Source: a virus
DNA length: 39,123 nt
IMG/VR virus record: IMGVR_UViG_3300045988_068423
Location: 1 to 39,123 of that record
Direction: 5' to 3' (one strand)
Shown here: piece by piece, positions 626 to 21,675 of the stretch
Layout of the letters: each line of letters begins with the position of its first letter
Position numbering within the stretch: the stretch's first letter is position 1
The notes under the pieces: model-generated
Databases searched by the model: none
Seen by the model: only the letters and a program-made list of their open reading frames with translations
What the model was told of the DNA's origin: nothing
Program-made: the position numbers and the translations under genes

Positions 626-2413
626 ATGCATACTGTAACAGACGCATTTAACGCCGCGTGTTCTGCACCGGGGCGTGAAATCACCAGCAAGGTAAATTTC
701 AACGGTACGACAGACCTTCCGGCATCGGAAATACAGGAAATCATCGTAACGGAGCAATTCGGCTCATCGGATGGCGTGACCATTGGTGCGGCGTTTTCCT
801 CCAGCTGCAAGGTTACGATGTACAAGCAGGATAATCTACCGTTGAACGGAGCGTATTTCATCCCCTCTGTCGGAATCATGGTGGACGGCGAAACGCAGTA
901 TGTTTCAAAAGGCAAATACTACATCCCCACAGACGGCGTGGAGGATAGCGGGAAGCTATGGGTAACAATCACCGGCTATGACCGCATGGCCAGTCTTACG
1001 GACAATTATGTGCCTACCATTGACTTCCCGACCACGCCCGCGCAGATGCTTGCAGATGTGTGTACGCAAGGTAATTTCACTGCCCCATCTGTAACGCTAC
1101 CAAACATCCAAATTGCCACGCCTTACACAGGAACATTGCGGCAGCAGCTCGGATGGCTGGCGGGTCTGATTGGCTGCAATGCCAAATTCGATTCTGCGGG
1201 GAATCTGACATTCTGCTGGTACGCCGACAGCAATTTAACTGTCGGATGGGATGTGCAGTATATGGGCGGTCTGTCCTTGACAGCAGACGAAGCGTTTACC
1301 ATTCACAGTCTGCTGACCGGCACGGAGAACAACACTATCAGCGTTGGCGCGGGAGTTGGCATTAAGGCAATTAACCCGTACATTACACCGGAGGTTGCCG
1401 AAACCGTGTTTGCAATGCTAGACGGCAAAACCATGATGCCCTGCAAAGTCAAGTGGCGCGGCAATCCCGCCGTAGAAGCGGGAGACATTGTAAGCGTCAC
1501 AGATTCCGGCAAGAATGCGCTGAATGTCTATGTGATGGAGCAGTCACTCCATGTAAAAGGCGGAATGTACGCAGAAACCACATGCTATGCACCCGCAGAT
1601 ACAGACTATGCCGCATCATCCCCGACAGAGCAGAAATTCCAGCGGATGTACAGCGATGTCATCAAGTCGTTTCAGGAGGCCACGCAGAAAATCATCGGTG
1701 CAAAAGGCGGATATTTTGAGATAACCTATGACGATGATGGCTACCCCACCGGCTGGACGCTGAAAAACACACCCACCGTCGAGGCAAACACGAAGATGTG
1801 GATTATGTCCATTGGTGGACTTGGTTTTTCTGCGGACGGCGGCAAAACCATCAGCAAAGTCGCCCTCACAATGGACGGCGAAATTGACGGTTCTGCTTTG
1901 GCGATTGGGTCTGTGACACAAGATGCAGTTTCTGGCCTATCACAGCAATTCTCCGTAATGGATGGGGAGATAAACTCCAAGATCAGCAAGACCGAAGCGG
2001 CAAGCAGTTTTGCGGGAAAGTCTGAATTTGAAAATCTCACAAAAACAACGGAAGCGGCGATAAAAGCAAATTCAGAATCTATTACGCAAAATTATTCCGA
2101 AATCAAAGAGCTTTCGGACAAAATCGCCGCCACCGAGGGATATATCAAAACCGGCAAAATCGCCGAGGACGAGAACCAAAACCCCATATATGGTGTCGAG
2201 GTCGGCCAAACAACGGATGACTTGGAATTCTCGGTTTTCGCACGGTTTACGGCTGGAAAACTGTCGTTTTACGACGGCAACGGAAATGAGATCAGCTATT
2301 TTTCCGGCCAAAAGCTGCACATTAAAGAAGCTGTTGTGTTGAGCGCCATGAATCTTGGCGGCTACGAGATGAGCACAAAAAAGGGCATTACAATCAGATG
2401 GGCAGGACGGTGA
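626..2413 (+). CDS. Tail-associated protein (Tal / tail endopeptidase-like baseplate hub)
   Basis: 595 aa, following the Dit-like gene. The N-terminal region recalls the phage tail endopeptidase/minor structural family. The C-terminal part looks coiled-coil-like (SEFENLTKTTEAAIKANSESITQNYSEIKELSDKIAATEG). Confidence 0.65.
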   Translation: MHTVTDAFNAACSAPGREITSKVNFNGTTDLPASEIQEIIVTEQFGSSDGVTIGAAFSSSCKVTMYKQDNLPLNGAYFIPSVGIMVDGETQYVSKGKYYIPTDGVEDSGKLWVTITGYDRMASLTDNYVPTIDFPTTPAQMLADVCTQGNFTAPSVTLPNIQIATPYTGTLRQQLGWLAGLIGCNAKFDSAGNLTFCWYADSNLTVGWDVQYMGGLSLTADEAFTIHSLLTGTENNTISVGAGVGIKAINPYITPEVAETVFAMLDGKTMMPCKVKWRGNPAVEAGDIVSVTDSGKNALNVYVMEQSLHVKGGMYAETTCYAPADTDYAASSPTEQKFQRMYSDVIKSFQEATQKIIGAKGGYFEITYDDDGYPTGWTLKNTPTVEANTKMWIMSIGGLGFSADGGKTISKVALTMDGEIDGSALAIGSVTQDAVSGLSQQFSVMDGEINSKISKTEAASSFAGKSEFENLTKTTEAAIKANSESITQNYSEIKELSDKIAATEGYIKTGKIAEDENQNPIYGVEVGQTTDDLEFSVFARFTAGKLSFYDGNGNEISYFSGQKLHIKEAVVLSAMNLGGYEMSTKKGITIRWAGR

Positions 2414-2417
2414 TAAC

Positions 2418-4328
2418 ATGGCATCGAGCGGAATCGTAAAAACAACCACAGTATATGACTCCTATTTCTGGGTGAAATGGGAGCTGGCCGGTCAGGATAT
2501 TGCCGGCAATAAATCCACCATCAGCTGGTCGTGCGGCATTACACCTGGACATCAGTTCTATTCCAACGCTGTAAAAATGTCCGCCGTTGCCATCAATGGC
2601 GCGACGGTGTACGCCGGTGGGACGTACTCCAACATCACCGACTACAAGGAACGCACCCTCGCTTCCGGCACCCTGACCATCGCCCACGATTCGGACGGCA
2701 GCAAGACCTTCACGGTGGCGGCCTTCAGTGGGCAGGTGTGGAAGGACACCGGCTATCTGACGGCCACGGCGGCGGCGCAGAGCTTTGCATTACCCACCAT
2801 CCCCCGCGCTACCGTGCCGGTAATTGGCGCGGTGGTCATGGGGCAAACCGTAACCATCGGCCTGCCCCGCGCAGTGTCGAGCTTTACCCACACGCTGACC
2901 TATACTTTCGGTTCGGCCTCCGGCACCATTGCCGAGGGCGCGGGCACAGAAGCGCAATGGGCGGTACCCTATGACCTTGCCGTGCAGATCCCCAACAACG
3001 CCAGCGGAACAGGCACGCTGACGTGCAAGACATACAGCGGCAGCACCCTCATAGGCACACAGTCAGTCAACTTTACCGCCACGGTGCCCAGCAACAGCAC
3101 CACACAGCCCAGCGACACCATCGCCGTGTCGCCCGTCAGCTCTTTGGCGGCTCCCTTTAGCGGGCTATACATCCAAGGGCGCACCAAGGCCAAGATCACC
3201 CACACCGCCAGCGGCAAATATGGCGCAACCATCAAATCCTATGCCGCAACAGTGGACGGGCAGACCTACACAGGGCAGGCACCCACCACGGAGATTCTGG
3301 CGACGCCTGGAACGCTGCCAATCACCGGCACGGCCACCGACAGCCGCGGCATTACCGGCACGGCTACCACCTCCATTACGGTGCTGGCTTACACACCTCC
3401 CTCTGTGGAGCGCAACACCGCCACAGACGCCCTTATCTGCGCCCGCGCACTTGCTGACGGCACGCTGGATGATGACGGCACAGCGCTCTATGTGGCGTGC
3501 AGCCGCAAGTATGCCGGCTTGGGCGGCAATAACGCCGCCTCGGTGCAAGTCCGTTATAAGGCCGAATCCGGTGAGTGGTCTGATTGGGTCACGTTTTTTG
3601 CCGAGAGCGCAAGCGGAGATAACTATGCCGGCACCATTGTGGGGATAACGCTGGCGGTAGAATCCCCGTATACCATTGAGCTGCGGGCGGTGGACAAGCT
3701 GGGTGAATCCGGCGGCACGCTGTCTTTTGCAGTCCCCACATCCGAGGCGACTGTAGACTTGGGCGAGGGCGGCAACTCTCTGGGCGTAGGCCGCCGCGCC
3801 CATGTGGGCACGGAGAAGCGGCTTGACGTTGCGTGGGACTCGACATTTGAAAAAGATGTCAAGGTAGACGGGAATTTGTCTGTTCGAGCCACAAACTTGG
3901 GCGAAACACCGCTCAAGGTGGCGGTGCTGGATAGTTCGGGTGTTCTGTATTATCGGACACCGGCGGAATTAAAATCTGATTTGCCCTATGGGGATTATGT
4001 GGTGGAGCAAGGCACATTAGGCATATGGACATATCGCAAGTGGGATAGCGGGATCGCTGAATGCTGGCTAAGCACTGAACAATCTTTAACTTGCGCAGCG
4101 CCAAAATCTTTAATGGGCGGATACTACTCTTCCGTTGATTTAGAGACGCCTTTCACCTTTGCAAGTTACCTTGGAGGGGTGGGGGATTCCGCTCTTGGAA
4201 CCGGTGTTGGCTTTACAAACGTAAGACCTCAATCCTCTAACTCGAAAATTTCGGTTTATTCGTGGGGCAACCAAAATGTTGCTACAATAAACATATTCGC
4301 TATTTACCTTTTTGGAAGATGGAAATAG
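2418..4328 (+). CDS. Putative receptor-binding / tail fibre protein
   Basis: 636 aa, Thr/Gly/Ala/Ser-rich beta-type protein after Tal. The N-terminus (SYFWVKWELAGQDIAGNKSTISWS...HDSDGSKTF) recalls siphovirus DUF859-type tail proteins; this was not verified. Confidence 0.55.
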   Translation: MASSGIVKTTTVYDSYFWVKWELAGQDIAGNKSTISWSCGITPGHQFYSNAVKMSAVAINGATVYAGGTYSNITDYKERTLASGTLTIAHDSDGSKTFTVAAFSGQVWKDTGYLTATAAAQSFALPTIPRATVPVIGAVVMGQTVTIGLPRAVSSFTHTLTYTFGSASGTIAEGAGTEAQWAVPYDLAVQIPNNASGTGTLTCKTYSGSTLIGTQSVNFTATVPSNSTTQPSDTIAVSPVSSLAAPFSGLYIQGRTKAKITHTASGKYGATIKSYAATVDGQTYTGQAPTTEILATPGTLPITGTATDSRGITGTATTSITVLAYTPPSVERNTATDALICARALADGTLDDDGTALYVACSRKYAGLGGNNAASVQVRYKAESGEWSDWVTFFAESASGDNYAGTIVGITLAVESPYTIELRAVDKLGESGGTLSFAVPTSEATVDLGEGGNSLGVGRRAHVGTEKRLDVAWDSTFEKDVKVDGNLSVRATNLGETPLKVAVLDSSGVLYYRTPAELKSDLPYGDYVVEQGTLGIWTYRKWDSGIAECWLSTEQSLTCAAPKSLMGGYYSSVDLETPFTFASYLGGVGDSALGTGVGFTNVRPQSSNSKISVYSWGNQNVATINIFAIYLFGRWK

Positions 4329-15931: not shown

Positions 15932-16479
15932 CGGTGGACGATACCTTGAAGATCATGGCTGTGCTGAAAGCGTCCTACCCGTCTTTTTACCGGGACATGA
16001 CCCGAAAGGACGCGGAAGGGATCGTGAATCTCTGGGCAGAGATGTTTGCGGGGGACGATTACCGGCTGGTAGCCGCTGCCGTAAAAGCGCTAATCGCATC
16101 GGATAGCAAGGGATTCCCGCCCGTCATTGGCCAGGTGAAAGACAAACTCCGGCTGTTGACGGACAAGAAGGACATGACCGAGCAGGAGGCGTGGGGGCTT
16201 GTGGCAAAAGCCGTGCGCAATGGAATCTGGGGATCGCAGGAGGAATTTGACAAACTCCCGGAGGAAGTCAGGCGCATTGTGGGCGGACCCGAACAGCTCC
16301 GCAGCTGGGCGATGATGGATAGCGACAGCCTGCATAGCGTGGTGGCCAGCAATTTCCAGCGCGCCTACCGAGTGCGGGCGGCGCAGCGGAAAGAGTATGC
16401 GGCGCTGCCTGCGGACGTCAAGGCCGTGGTGGAGCAGATAGCGGGTGGCGGCATGAAGATGCTGGAGGGCGGAGAATGA
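15928..16479 (+). CDS. G40P-loader-like (helicase loader/inhibitor family) protein
   Basis: ATGA overlap with the previous gene. The N-terminal ...YPSFY...W.EMF...FPPVIGQV pattern recalls the loader-of-G40P family. Confidence 0.45.
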   Translation: MTVDDTLKIMAVLKASYPSFYRDMTRKDAEGIVNLWAEMFAGDDYRLVAAAVKALIASDSKGFPPVIGQVKDKLRLLTDKKDMTEQEAWGLVAKAVRNGIWGSQEEFDKLPEEVRRIVGGPEQLRSWAMMDSDSLHSVVASNFQRAYRVRAAQRKEYAALPADVKAVVEQIAGGGMKMLEGGE

Positions 16480-17165
16480 AGCACTTAGGCGATATTTGCA
16501 AGATAAACGGCGCTGAGATTGAGCCTGTGTGGTGCATCACAGGCGGCAGCCCGTGTCAGGACTTGAGCATTGCCGGAAAGAGAGCGGGGCTGGCAGGCGC
16601 CCGAAGCGGCCTGTTTATGGAGCAGGTGCGCATTGCAAAAGAAATGCGGGAGGAGGACAAGAGAAATGGACGGACAGGTGAGTTTATTCGCCCTCGATAC
16701 CTCGTATGGGAGAACGTGCCAGGCGCGTTCAGCAGCAACAAAGGGCGGGACTTCGCGGCAGTCCTCGAAGAGATCATCCGCATCGTCGAACCGGAAGCCG
16801 CCGGTATTGATGTGCCTGCAAAGGGTTGGCCGACTTGGGGAGGATACCACGACTGCATGGGTGGACGATGGAGCGTGGCTTGGAGAGTGCATGACGCGCA
16901 ATACTGGGGAGTGCCCCAACGTCGCCGTAGAATCTCGCTTGTCGCAGATTTTGGAGGCGACACCGCCGGCGAAATACTCTTTGACCGCAAAAGCGTGCCT
17001 GGGGATCTTGCGGAGAGCGGAGCGGCGGGGGAAAGACTTGCCGAAGCTGCTGAAAGCGGTTTTAATCCGGCAGTCGCAAGGAGCCTCACCGCAAGAGCAG
17101 ACGGAAGCCCCTGCGCCGACAGAGGCCCCAACATCGTATGCAGTCCGCATCAGGGGGGGGTGTGA
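16476..17165 (+). CDS. C5-cytosine DNA methyltransferase, catalytic-core polypeptide (motifs IV-VIII, no motif I)
   Basis: GGSPCQDLS (IV), VWENVPG (VI), QRRRRISLVADF (VIII). ATGA-coupled start. The frame ends right after a G8 run (17153-17160). Confidence 0.8.
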   Translation: MKHLGDICKINGAEIEPVWCITGGSPCQDLSIAGKRAGLAGARSGLFMEQVRIAKEMREEDKRNGRTGEFIRPRYLVWENVPGAFSSNKGRDFAAVLEEIIRIVEPEAAGIDVPAKGWPTWGGYHDCMGGRWSVAWRVHDAQYWGVPQRRRRISLVADFGGDTAGEILFDRKSVPGDLAESGAAGERLAEAAESGFNPAVARSLTARADGSPCADRGPNIVCSPHQGGV

Positions 17166-18141
17166 CGGCGGAGGAAAAGGCGCGTTAGTGCAGACGGAGA
17201 AAAGCGGGACGCTTGGCACCGGCAACGACCAGACGATATTTGCGGCAATCCCTATCAACGACAAAGCCACCAGATGGCAGGGCGGCGGTGAAAGCCGCAA
17301 CCACGATGGAAGCGGGAACGGGCTGGGAATAGGCAGGGACGGAGACCCGTCACCGACGCTTACCGCAGGAGACCGGCACGGAGTGATGGCGGTGGCGCTG
17401 GATATGACACACGCCTGCGACGTTATCCGCGAGTGCGGGGAGCAAGTATCGGCATTACAGGCGCGAATGGGGACAGGCGGCAACCAAGTGCCGCTTACAT
17501 ACGGTATCGGCAACGGACAAGCCCATGAAGCCAGCATTATGACTGAGGAAGTCAGCCAGACACTGAACACCATGCACGATGCCCAGGCGATTTTATCCCA
17601 GCCCAAAAGCGCGATGGAAGAAAACTGGGCGGAAAGCGAAACGAAGAACGCATTACGCGCCGGAGAAAGCAAAGTGAGCCACGCGGTGATGTGTGAGGAC
17701 GTGAGCCACGCGCTGCGTGCAAAGGCTGCCTGCGCGTACCGGGAGGATGCGGAGACATACCCGGTACAGAACATGGTCGTGCGCCGCCTGACGCCGATGG
17801 AGTGCGAACGGCTGCAAGGTTTCCCGAACCACTGGACTGACATCGGCGAGTGGACGGACGAAAAGGGCAAGGAGCACAAGGACGCGGACAGCCCCCGGTA
17901 CAAAGCACTGGGTAACTCCATCGCCCTGCCCTTCTGGGAGTGGATGCTGCGGCGCATGGCGCGGTATCTGCCGGAGCGGGCAACGCTGGGGAGCCTGTTT
18001 GACGGCATAGGCGGATTCCCGCTTTGCTGGGAGCGCATTCACGGCCAAAGAACGGCCAGATGGGCGAGCGAGATCGAGCAGTTTCCCGTTGCTGTGACAA
18101 AAATACGATTTCCGGAGGAAGGAGAAGAAGATGGCATTTGA
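16666..18141 (+). CDS. C5-methyltransferase target-recognition/C-terminal polypeptide, with motif I appended at its C-terminus (frame +1, overlaps 16476-17165 by 500 nt)
   Basis: AGGAGG sits 9 nt before ATG 16666. LSQILE..KYSLTAKAC, RRLTPMECERLQGFP (IX), GNSIALP (X), then LFDGIGGF (I) and ASEIE at the extreme C-terminus. Confidence 0.65.
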   Translation: MDGQVSLFALDTSYGRTCQARSAATKGGTSRQSSKRSSASSNRKPPVLMCLQRVGRLGEDTTTAWVDDGAWLGECMTRNTGECPNVAVESRLSQILEATPPAKYSLTAKACLGILRRAERRGKDLPKLLKAVLIRQSQGASPQEQTEAPAPTEAPTSYAVRIRGGCDGGGKGALVQTEKSGTLGTGNDQTIFAAIPINDKATRWQGGGESRNHDGSGNGLGIGRDGDPSPTLTAGDRHGVMAVALDMTHACDVIRECGEQVSALQARMGTGGNQVPLTYGIGNGQAHEASIMTEEVSQTLNTMHDAQAILSQPKSAMEENWAESETKNALRAGESKVSHAVMCEDVSHALRAKAACAYREDAETYPVQNMVVRRLTPMECERLQGFPNHWTDIGEWTDEKGKEHKDADSPRYKALGNSIALPFWEWMLRRMARYLPERATLGSLFDGIGGFPLCWERIHGQRTARWASEIEQFPVAVTKIRFPEEGEEDGI

Positions 18142-20630: not shown

Positions 20631-21073
20631 AAAGAAGCGTGTTAATCGCGGCGCTGCTTGTAGCAATCTTGGGGGCATTGGGCATTGCGTCTGCCACGGA
20701 GGACAGCGGGCAAACGCAGGAGACTGTAGTTGTGCCGCCGGGGGTGGTTCTGCCCCGCGATGAGCCGCAGGAGACCCAGGAGACGCGGACGTGCGTATTT
20801 ACCGTAACTGCATATTGCCCGTGCTGGAAATGCTGTGGAGCCTATGCAAACGGCTATACAGCCACCGGCGCAAAAGCCACGCAGGGCGTGACGGTCGCCG
20901 CAGACCCGGATGTGCTGCCGATGGGCACGGAGATACAGATAGATGGCCATACATACACCGTGCAGGACACCGGCGGCGCCATTGCCGGGAATCGGCTGGA
21001 TCTGTATTTTGACAGCCACGAGGACGCCTTGCGGTGGGGCGTGCAAGAAAAAGTTGTGAGGTGGGCCGAATGA
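20624..21073 (+). CDS. Secreted 3D-domain protein (cell-wall-active, MltA/YabE-like domain)
   Basis: Signal peptide MVKRSVLIAALLVAILGALGIASA. 3D-domain pattern TAYCP...TATG...VAADPDVLPMGT...DTGGAIAGNRLDLYF. Confidence 0.75.
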   Translation: MVKRSVLIAALLVAILGALGIASATEDSGQTQETVVVPPGVVLPRDEPQETQETRTCVFTVTAYCPCWKCCGAYANGYTATGAKATQGVTVAADPDVLPMGTEIQIDGHTYTVQDTGGAIAGNRLDLYFDSHEDALRWGVQEKVVRWAE

Positions 21074-21675
21074 ATCAAATCGCGCTGAATGTAGACTGCA
21101 TGGAGTATATGCAGGCGCTACCGGATAAAGCATTTGATCTTGCCATTGTTGACCCACCGTATGGAATTAGCATTCATGATAGTGGCCGATTGAAAAAATA
21201 CAATGCCACTGAAACAAGATGGGACGATGCGACTCCGGGTGATGTGTATTTTAGCGAATTAAAAAGATGCAGCAAAAACCAAATAATATGGGGGGGGAAT
21301 TATTACGATCTTCCGCCTTGTAGGGGATTTGTTATTTGGGACAAAAAGCAGCCGGAAGATATTTCTTTTGCATCTTGCGAATTTGCATGGACTTCTTTCG
21401 ATACATCTGCGAGAACTTTTTATTACTCGCCGTTGCAAGAAAAGGGGCAAAGAATTCATCCAACGCAAAAGCCCGTGGCATTGTACGAGTGGCTGCTGAT
21501 GAAGTACGCCAAAGAAGGCTGGCGCATACTGGATACACACTTGGGCAGTGGAAGCAGCAGGATAGCTGCTTACAACCTCGGCTTTGAGTTTGTGGGGTGC
21601 GAGATCGAACCGACATATTTCCAACTGCAAGAACAGCGGTTTGCGGATCATACGGCGCAGGAAAGGATGTGGTAG
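21070..21675 (+). CDS. DPPY-motif DNA methyltransferase (N6-adenine or N4-cytosine, beta-class order)
   Basis: IVDPPYG comes before DTHLGSGSS (AdoMet site). ATGA-coupled. Confidence 0.8.
   Translation: MNQIALNVDCMEYMQALPDKAFDLAIVDPPYGISIHDSGRLKKYNATETRWDDATPGDVYFSELKRCSKNQIIWGGNYYDLPPCRGFVIWDKKQPEDISFASCEFAWTSFDTSARTFYYSPLQEKGQRIHPTQKPVALYEWLLMKYAKEGWRILDTHLGSGSSRIAAYNLGFEFVGCEIEPTYFQLQEQRFADHTAQERMW

Follow-up and report, generated by a model that had tools for sequence, protein, structure and literature searches.

The 39,123 nucleotides (nt) of the IMG/VR virus record IMGVR_UViG_3300045988_068423 (hereafter the window, i.e. the whole stretch analysed) contain a C5-cytosine methyltransferase locus at which two reading frames of the same strand are open over the same nucleotides. 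Unless stated otherwise, the features of this locus given below lie on the plus strand. The first open reading frame (ORF), referred to as frame A, extends from 16476 to 17165 (229 amino acids, aa) and encodes the predicted catalytic half of the methyltransferase. It matches PF00145 (E=4e-21) at profile positions 46-130, which cover motifs IV (GGSPCQDLS, 16542-16568), VI (WENVPGAF, 16707-16730) and VIII (QRRRRISLVADFGG, 16917-16958). A linker follows motif VIII and includes a unit resembling a target recognition domain (TRD; FNPAVARSLTARADGSPCADRGPNIV, 17061-17138), which is read in frame A and lies in the 70-nt (3n+1) long linker. Frame A ends at a TGA codon (17163-17165) located just past a homopolymer of eight G residues (G8, 17153-17160), the site of the frame switch discussed below.

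The +1 frame (frame B) is free of stops from 16570 to 18141. A Shine-Dalgarno sequence (AGGAGG, 16651-16656) lies 9 nt before an in-frame ATG (16666-16668), the predicted start codon of an embedded gene whose specific part (16666-17130, ~155 codons) overlaps frame A throughout. This part carries the pentapeptide QVSLF at residues 4-8 (16675-16689), which resembles a beta-sliding-clamp-binding motif, and a predicted C-terminal helical domain (SRLSQILE...KYSLTAKACLGILRRAERRGKDLPKLLKAVLIRQ, 16933-17073) opposite the frame-A linker. Beyond the G tract, the C-terminal half of the enzyme (17166-18141), which is read in frame B in this window, contains TRD repeats followed by motifs IX (RRLTPMECERLQGFP, 17782-17826), X (RYKALGNSIALP, 17896-17931), I (GSLFDGIGGFPL, 17989-18024) and II (WASEIEQFPVAVTKIRF, 18061-18111). 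PF00145 matches the B ORF (16666-18141) only outside the overlap, at positions 200-320 (motifs IX and X) and, for the last 60 aa (17959-18138), at positions 4-47 (motifs I and II). The C5-methyltransferase motifs of this allele are thus split across two frames, in the order III/IV...X, I, II. The initial annotation had described the two open frames, the ribosome-binding site with its ATG and a set of peptides read from each frame, and we recover all of them. Its statement that both frames resemble a methyltransferase stands for frame A, but within the overlap frame B matches no methyltransferase profile.

Public gene calls disagree at such loci. In nr, the ORF 16666-18141 (491 aa) has a counterpart of 100% identity under the name 'Cytosine specific methyltransferase [Caudoviricetes sp.]'. 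Genes of 229 and 317 aa are predicted on the same contig by other pipelines, and stand-alone 'hypothetical proteins' of 143-154 aa are among the calls as well.

The order of the motifs indicates a circular permutation of the methyltransferase that places its termini between motifs II and III, since the N-terminus of the predicted enzyme falls at PF00145 position 46 and its C-terminus at position 47. A break between motifs II and III corresponds to the 'type B' permutation of PMC5944983. The engineered type-B permutant likewise begins between motifs II and III and ends with motifs I-II, but the form described here is natural and common in this family of gut phages. One close relative (P0363) encodes the enzyme as one chain and is still permuted, and the permuted form coexists with non-permuted relatives that have the same embedded gene (L089 and L157). 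The natural type-H enzymes M.BssHII and M.Alw26I are arranged otherwise, with an N-terminus in the variable region and motifs IX-X before motifs I-VIII, an arrangement with which the PF00145 positions of the window enzyme do not agree. Natural type-B circular permutation of C5-methyltransferases appears to be new here; a 2018 REBASE survey had found no such permutants.

Taken as a single sequence, the openness of frame B is only weakly beyond chance. When the codons of frame A were shuffled synonymously, frame B remained free of stops in 1-4% of shuffles for the window and in ~10% on average for its homologues. As an internal control, another ORF of the window (2373-4325) is stop-free over 197 codons in its +1 frame and over 153 codons in its +2 frame. 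For this reason, the case for dual coding rests on comparison. We collected 88 homologous viral loci (80 from IMG/VR and eight from phage records or metagenome contigs) and, later, a more divergent set of 80 loci from bacterial genomes, 61 of which were usable; among these 61 are enzymes with canonical motif order as well as loci from cultured isolates, for example the prophage locus L157 of Anaerotruncus colihominis DSM 17241.

Frame B is open over at least 137 codons, from the same starting place, in 86 of the 88 viral loci, and over at least 130 codons in all 61 bacterial-genome loci, while frame +2 contains 4-14 stops across the same stretch. The start is conserved as well: in 61 of 83 loci an ATG lies at -53, -50 or -41, as counted from the WENV Trp codon, usually behind AAGGAG or GGAGG, and most of the remaining loci have GTG or TTG at the same position with the same AAGGAG ahead. 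About 4.5% of the single-base changes that are synonymous in frame A would create a stop in frame B, so that the 201 or more synonymous codon changes detected in the first part of the overlap should have produced at least nine stops; none was seen. The leucine codons of frame A fit this avoidance of stops. All seven of those lying in 16666-17165 are CTC or CTT, as had been noticed at the outset and considered consistent with dual coding, whereas 12 of 20 downstream are CTG.

The distribution of nucleotide diversity among codon positions provides what is, in our view, the decisive result in favor of frame B being a gene. Before the start of B, the third position of frame A (A3) is by far the most diverse (0.45-0.63, far above A1 and A2). 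Over motifs VI-VIII, A3 is still the highest, but it is reduced to 0.26-0.46. From RRISVVADFGG to AESG, the order is reversed, with A1 (which is B3) at 0.25-0.42, followed by A2 (B1) and then by A3 (B2) at 0.04-0.14, and the order typical of frame A resumes immediately past the stop of B. The same flip is found in the 61 bacterial-genome loci. Four-fold degenerate sites at conserved frame-A residues agree with this pattern, as their diversity is 0.64 upstream of the overlap and 0.56 in a C-terminal control, versus 0.39 and 0.25 in the two halves of the overlap (p=5e-6 and 1e-4). In the second half of the overlap, the ratio of nonsynonymous to synonymous differences (pN/pS, Nei-Gojobori) is 0.37 for frame B and 0.88 for frame A.

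Periodicity of this kind could also come from the antisense strand, where an ORF of 517 aa (16485-18038, minus strand) has its third positions on A1, as does frame B. We rejected this candidate as a shadow of frame B: its pN/pS is 0.51, versus 0.37 for B, and it contains stops in most homologues.

Purifying selection on B is strong for its C-terminal ~50 codons and weak for its N-terminal ~95 codons. In line with a folded C-terminal domain, AlphaFold2 (AF2) predicts this part of B with per-residue confidence (pLDDT) of 82-96. The 70-nt insert of the long linker shows too little variation to tell which frame is under selection there. Three outcomes that could have spoken against dual coding were looked for, namely stops in one frame among homologues, database matches from one frame only, and constraint in a single frame. 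Both frames turned out to be kept open, to have database matches and to be constrained, with constraint partitioned along the overlap. Comparison among homologues thus shows that the same nucleotides are coding in both frames, each with its own start, and that frame B has the properties of an independent same-strand overlapping gene with its own Shine-Dalgarno sequence and start codon.

Database searches indicate that the embedded gene is widespread. B is matched by 518 database proteins, and a profile built from it detects 4,417 clusters (at 50% identity) among 1.84 billion representative proteins. A tblastn search of annotated phages with the 68-aa B domain matched 129 records, among which are Escherichia phages P1, P7 and RCS47, Salmonella phage SJ46, Vibrio phages, mycobacteriophages Omega and Porcelain, Streptococcus Javan prophages, Akkermansia phage Chantilly, Roseobacter phage CRP-822, Burkholderia phage Bcep22 and Pseudomonas phage zjk6. 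Among the annotated matches listed, the B domain lies under a DNA methyltransferase gene or, in some, under a 'hypothetical protein'. In all eight distant annotated phages that we checked, it is found in frame +1 of the annotated coding sequence, within a +1 ORF of 135-194 codons. Nine phages were compared over the same 93 nt, which encode KYxLSxKACxGILRRAExRGKxLPxxLxxAL in frame B: identity at the amino-acid level amounts to 65% for frame B, compared with 31% for A and 29% for +2, and nucleotide diversity is 0.59 at B3, 0.34 at B1 and 0.25 at B2. B is embedded in a C5-methyltransferase gene in every locus whose frame A was examined, and no non-overlapping copy was found among these loci.

Neither the window B nor eight distant versions of it matched anything in Pfam (E<=10), NCBIfam, PADLOC or the PDB sequences, and the sole family match of B is a weak one to phrog_16143. 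B thus appears to be a separate, uncharacterised family of proteins of ~145 aa rather than recognisable methyltransferase sequence. A literature search covering overlapping genes in methyltransferases, permuted or phase-variable phage methyltransferases, P1 dmt and peptide strings yielded no prior description.

Phage P1 provides a member of this clade. Its Dmt protein is bifunctional (Dam/C5), and the C5 domain belongs to the same clade as the window enzyme. The dmt gene (L175, MH445380.1, 2222-2719) contains a 165-codon +1 ORF with the conserved B domain (LLSQVLEQTSIPQRYFLSSKACAGILRRAEARGRKLP) over the linker that follows motif VIII, and predicted stretches of the frame-B product read ...SQVLEQTSIPQR and YFLSSK.... 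Unlike in the window, the methyltransferase motifs of P1 are in canonical order, and B is not seen fused to the C-terminal half, as the +1 ORF ends at its own stop. The P1 region is found in 493 complete E. coli genomes and, among the RefSeq entries listed for P1-like plasmids, the methyltransferase alone is annotated. From the Clostridia phages and prophages to P1 dmt, comparison thus shows a predicted overlap that is ancient and clade-wide, and not a local oddity.

The collected loci show several further irregularities. In Mycobacterium phage Porcelain (L177, 1562-2762), annotation divides the methyltransferase between two overlapping genes, gp116 and gp117; the B-like ORF shares the frame of gp117, with a stop between them, which represents another natural split in the clade. 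One relative (P0206) has an HNH/NUMOD-like insertion and another (P0495) has Pfam domains of intein/LAGLIDADG type. In addition, 15 distinct sequences (L001, L003, L006-L008, which are identical here, L014, L015, L024, L047, L050, L056, L057, L059, L062, L066, L067 and L083) carry a 4-nt TAGA or TAGC insertion right after the codon for the catalytic Cys (TCACCTTGT|TAGA|CAGGAT), at a position equivalent to ~16560 of the window. At this insertion the local context is conserved, and both a 27-codon upstream ORF and the downstream frame are intact. It could serve programmed recoding by +1, or the enzyme could be disabled on purpose. L052 has a different insertion, of 26 nt.

The G tract at the end of frame A sets which of the two N-terminal ORFs owns the shared C-terminal half. 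We compared tract length with fusion state in 45 loci, which fall into two groups according to the distance from motif VIII to the GGGKG codons: 250 nt in the long-linker group, to which the window belongs, and 180 nt in the short-linker group. The extra 70-nt TRD-like unit of the long linker shifts the frame relations at the tract. Among short-linker loci, the C-terminal half is fused to frame A when the tract is G7 (14 loci) and to frame B when it is G8 (3 loci), and all seven loci with an interrupted tract are A-fused. Among long-linker loci, G6 is associated with fusion to A (4 loci) and G7 or G8 with fusion to B (9 loci); the base that follows the 7-G run is G in the window and C in the others. 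The locus L010 has a G7 tract and is restored to A-fusion by a compensating deletion of the T after the tract. If this compensation is taken into account, tract length predicts fusion state in all 33 loci with a run of at least five G. Over the 79 viral loci in which the frame could be assigned, frame A is continuous with the C-terminal half in 62 and frame B in 17.

The closest comparison is provided by L093 and L094, two loci that share 99.3% identity with the window across its first 700 nt and encode one enzyme of 562 aa. In this stretch they differ from the window by one indel, namely G7 versus G8. The tract is, in other words, a homopolymer within an ORF whose length differs between near-identical genomes and shifts the frame. 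A random assembly error is unlikely as the origin of G8, because the gene-call product of the G8 allele recurs on 8 contigs and the one of these that was inspected (L092, from a separate Logan assembly) is identical and has G8. The architecture of the window is thus best described as a +1-G variant of a single-chain gene, in which A terminates and the open frame B would inherit the TRD-IX-X-I-II half. The long +1 ORF reaching 18141, initially presented as the layout of the locus, accordingly belongs to one allele, and its G7 relatives encode the 562-aa enzyme.

We also considered that frame B might be junk and the poly-G tract the sole frameshift site. This was rejected, as frame B reads the conserved ...VRIRGGCDGGGKG through the tract; the substitution patterns contradict it too.

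Tract length varies widely across the family. In an Oscillospiraceae metagenome-assembled genome (L111), the homologous tract is G11, lies ~165 nt past the LSQILE codons and is B-fused. The window has a second G8 tract (21290-21297), in frame (IWGGNYYDLPP) within an ORF (21034-21675) that matches PF01555 (N6_N4_Mtase), so that each of the two G8 tracts of the window falls within a methyltransferase gene. Six database gene products (P0019, P0021, P0029, P0052, P0099 and P0120) start in frame A (MKHLGDI...PCQ...) and enter frame B, each at a different point; frameshift mutation, the assembly of strain mixtures or errors could account for them. As they illustrate, the openness of frame B turns any frameshift into a long ORF.

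The N-terminus of B offers a possible clue to its function. It frequently reads QVSLF, QMSLF, QLSLF or QLDLF, and the consensus for binding to the beta clamp is Q-L-x-L-F (PMC4549789). A strict version of the motif occurs within the first 32 codons of B in 24 of 76 diverse loci, versus 0.47% of control windows (a ~68-fold excess), and overall the motif is found in 32-41% of diverse loci. Perfect QLSLF or QLDLF sequences are found in several lineages, at differing offsets from the frame-A motifs. These observations suggest that the N-terminal motif of B may bind the beta clamp.

Taken together, our results lead us to propose, with good though not full confidence, that frame B is an independent gene overlapping a permuted methyltransferase, combined with a poly-G frame switch. 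Under this model, frame A would encode the catalytic half (motifs III/IV-VIII) of a permuted phage C5-cytosine methyltransferase, and the B product, of ~145 residues, would consist of the N-terminal QVSLF, a loose Ser/Lys-rich segment and a conserved helical domain of ~50 residues. The Ser/Lys-rich segment would be laid over the catalytic motifs of A and the helical domain over the inter-domain linker of A. Owing to this layout, the constrained part of each frame would sit over the tolerant part of the other; the middle segment of B would be shaped mainly by frame A, as suggested by its pN/pS of ~1.2. A shorter G tract would result in a single-chain enzyme plus a free B, and one extra G, as in the G8 of the window, in the termination of A and the fusion of B to the TRD-IX-X-I-II half. 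The change in tract length seems somewhat more likely to reflect slipped-strand phase variation than another process. To a similar degree, we favor the view that the G8 allele is a low-activity or OFF state; that it encodes a fully active enzyme made of two chains is conceivable, with appreciably lower probability.

As for the role of B, our working model, adopted because B is always co-encoded with the enzyme, is that B acts together with the methyltransferase; its most plausible role would be that of an adaptor that ties the enzyme to the beta sliding clamp of the host where DNA is being replicated. We put this forward tentatively, and an unrelated accessory role, for example in clamp inhibition or anti-defence, is possible. 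Equally tentative is a broader reading in which an ancient, unannotated +1 gene, present throughout a clade comprising gut Clostridia phages, P1 dmt, mycobacteriophages and phages of Vibrio, Pseudomonas, Burkholderia and Akkermansia, encodes a partner of the enzyme (e.g. a clamp adaptor), and the poly-G tract reassigns the recognition and S-adenosylmethionine (AdoMet) half in many lineages.

Several observations weigh against the proposed gene, its switch or its clamp-binding role. The N-terminal ~95 codons of B, at a pN/pS of 1.2, show no amino-acid-level constraint of their own, and the signals found there are limited to the avoidance of stops and to lowered synonymous diversity in A. About 60% of the diverse loci have no recognisable clamp motif, including P1, whose +1 ORF has nothing resembling QLxLF, and the closest relatives of the window mostly have QVTWS at this site. 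Tracts of seven or more G are not enriched in the window (7 observed versus 7.7 expected). B can also become joined to the C-terminal half through unrelated frameshifting deletions in which no homopolymer is involved. Since many fusions have this origin, their abundance is no proof of a functional fusion, and a 'Rosetta-stone' argument from the abundance of B-fused proteins, which we had considered, is weakened accordingly. Full-length AF2 models are poor, with mean pLDDT of 47 for the window form, which is poorly modelled outside the B domain, and 37 for the single-chain P0363, the latter being too poor to confirm a permuted fold or a disordered linker, and a Foldseek search of the PDB with the AF2 model returned no match at E<1.

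The main competing explanation is that the enzyme is an obligate two-subunit methyltransferase, with A as the alpha subunit (motifs III-VIII) and the +1 ORF as the beta subunit (B plus TRD, IX, X, I and II), as in M.AquI. The split point does match the place at which natural (M.AquI) and engineered splits complement each other, and a two-chain enzyme is possible given the engineered precedent: the fragments [62-279] and [280-61] of the type-B permutant cp62M.MpeI restore partial activity (PMC5944983). B-fused forms are also frequent, as they account for 9 of 14 long-linker loci and 102 of the best 120 database matches, besides the 17 viral loci mentioned above, and in L091 frame A stops right after motif VIII. 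However, most homologues are single-chain, as are relatives that are nearly identical to the window in their N-terminal part, and short-linker loci with interrupted, non-slippery tracts are always A-fused. Many B-fusions result from assorted deletions resembling decay, and the engineered split is active only partially. Moreover, genes for single-chain enzymes, from P1 to the Clostridia phages, retain B as an ORF standing by itself, which implies that its role is not merely that of the N-terminus of a beta subunit. An obligate two-subunit enzyme thus appears rather unlikely. The M.AquI-type organization suggested in the initial annotation may apply to this allele, but it is not the design of the family, given the predominance of A-fused loci and the single-chain G7 relatives. 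Somewhat less probable still is that B is a real gene unrelated to methylation, e.g. an anti-defence protein or a host-takeover protein such as a sliding-clamp inhibitor, overprinted on a tolerant linker. Accessory antagonists are common among the overprinted genes of viruses, a clamp inhibitor would be equally well served by the clamp-binding-like motif, and B matches no methyltransferase profile. What speaks for a functional tie is that B is embedded in a C5-methyltransferase at every locus with an examined frame A, in phages with hosts from at least four phyla, yet the overlap by itself also locks the two genes together mechanically.

Two further explanations dispense with a separate B gene. 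Under programmed ribosomal frameshifting, ribosomes translating A would shift by +1 past motif VIII into the B domain and, in this window, on into the TRD, and B would need no separate start. In the G8 allele, one +1 shift at any point of the overlap would indeed yield a full-length enzyme, and G runs and rare Arg codons can promote slippage. In other C5-methyltransferases, an L-x-x-ILE...KYYLS-like element follows motif VIII in frame. But frame B is open ~95 codons before the domain and its Shine-Dalgarno sequence and start are conserved, neither of which would be required; single-chain members such as P1 would need a second shift back; no conserved slippery site was identified; and PF00145 does not align to the B domain. 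We therefore regard frameshifting as very unlikely. The last possibility, that frame B is no gene at all, but is open by chance or composition, seems conserved through the conservation of frame A and is extended into a long ORF by a homopolymer sequencing error, draws on its unremarkable openness in single sequences, on the pN/pS of the N-terminal two thirds of B, on the lack of a match to any known family and on the error-prone sequencing of homopolymers. It is the least probable of all, and the substitution analysis already contradicts it. The third position of A is the least variable over 40-50 codons, B fits best of the six frames and, across phyla, conservation over the shared nucleotides is twice as high in B as in A. 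Conservation extends to the start site, and stops are absent from ~150 loci despite saturated synonymous change. The recurrence of the G8 product on 8 contigs, with G8 in the one inspected (L092), argues against a sequencing error.

Examples are already known of overlapping genes, of phase-variable methyltransferases and of methyltransferases that are split or permuted. In nature, the C5-methyltransferase M.AquI consists of two subunits (Karreman & de Waard 1990, as cited in PMC5944983). The window resembles it in that A stops at 17165, past motif VIII and a linker, and in that a +1 ORF with its own start provides the TRD and what follows. Unlike a fixed split, however, the division seen here depends on the allele (one G) and is not maintained across relatives; the overlap reaches ~500 nt and adds a conserved domain that bears no relation to the motifs of methyltransferases; and the order is permuted, with motifs I-II on the 'beta' chain of the putative two-chain form. 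Overprinted genes of the phiX174 type and long bacterial overlaps (PMC8227390, PMC8850804) likewise combine two frames with partitioned constraint. The present overlap differs from these in lying inside a DNA-modification enzyme of double-stranded DNA (dsDNA) phages, in its conservation across phages of Firmicutes, Proteobacteria, Actinobacteria and Verrucomicrobia, and in being coupled to a homopolymer that would swap the N-terminal ORF on a shared C-terminal half. Poly-G phase-variable methyltransferases, such as those of Campylobacter (PMC6321876), also have a G tract within an ORF in which a difference of one unit shifts the frame. Unlike in these switches, the gene is here phage-borne, tract variation is seen between genomes, and the 'off' frame is a second conserved ORF, so that slippage would exchange fusion partners instead of causing mere truncation.

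A functional analogy to the putative coupling of B with the clamp is found in DNMT1, which is tethered to PCNA via a PCNA-interacting protein (PIP) box. Unlike in DNMT1, the motif would here be carried by a separate overprinted protein (or by a fusion), is of the bacterial QLxLF type and is absent from many members. What appears to be new is the presence of a deeply conserved overprinted gene in a major C5-methyltransferase clade, together with its coupling to a homopolymer that would exchange N-terminal modules.

Among dsDNA phages and bacteria, few long same-strand overlaps have solid evolutionary support, and annotation pipelines do not allow for such genes. An embedded gene of ~145 codons, conserved across phages whose hosts belong to at least four phyla, would explain the inconsistent public annotation of these loci, and the family that contains it documents natural type-B permutants. 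P1 dmt offers a highly tractable phage system in this respect, as mutations synonymous in A could cleanly knock out B. The homopolymer would go beyond a simple off-switch for a gene in that it swaps protein modules and, if this is true, the frame switch yields two alternative N-termini on one C-terminus. If B does partner the enzyme, it would constitute an unrecognised component of phage DNA methylation and possibly a link between methylation and the replication clamp.

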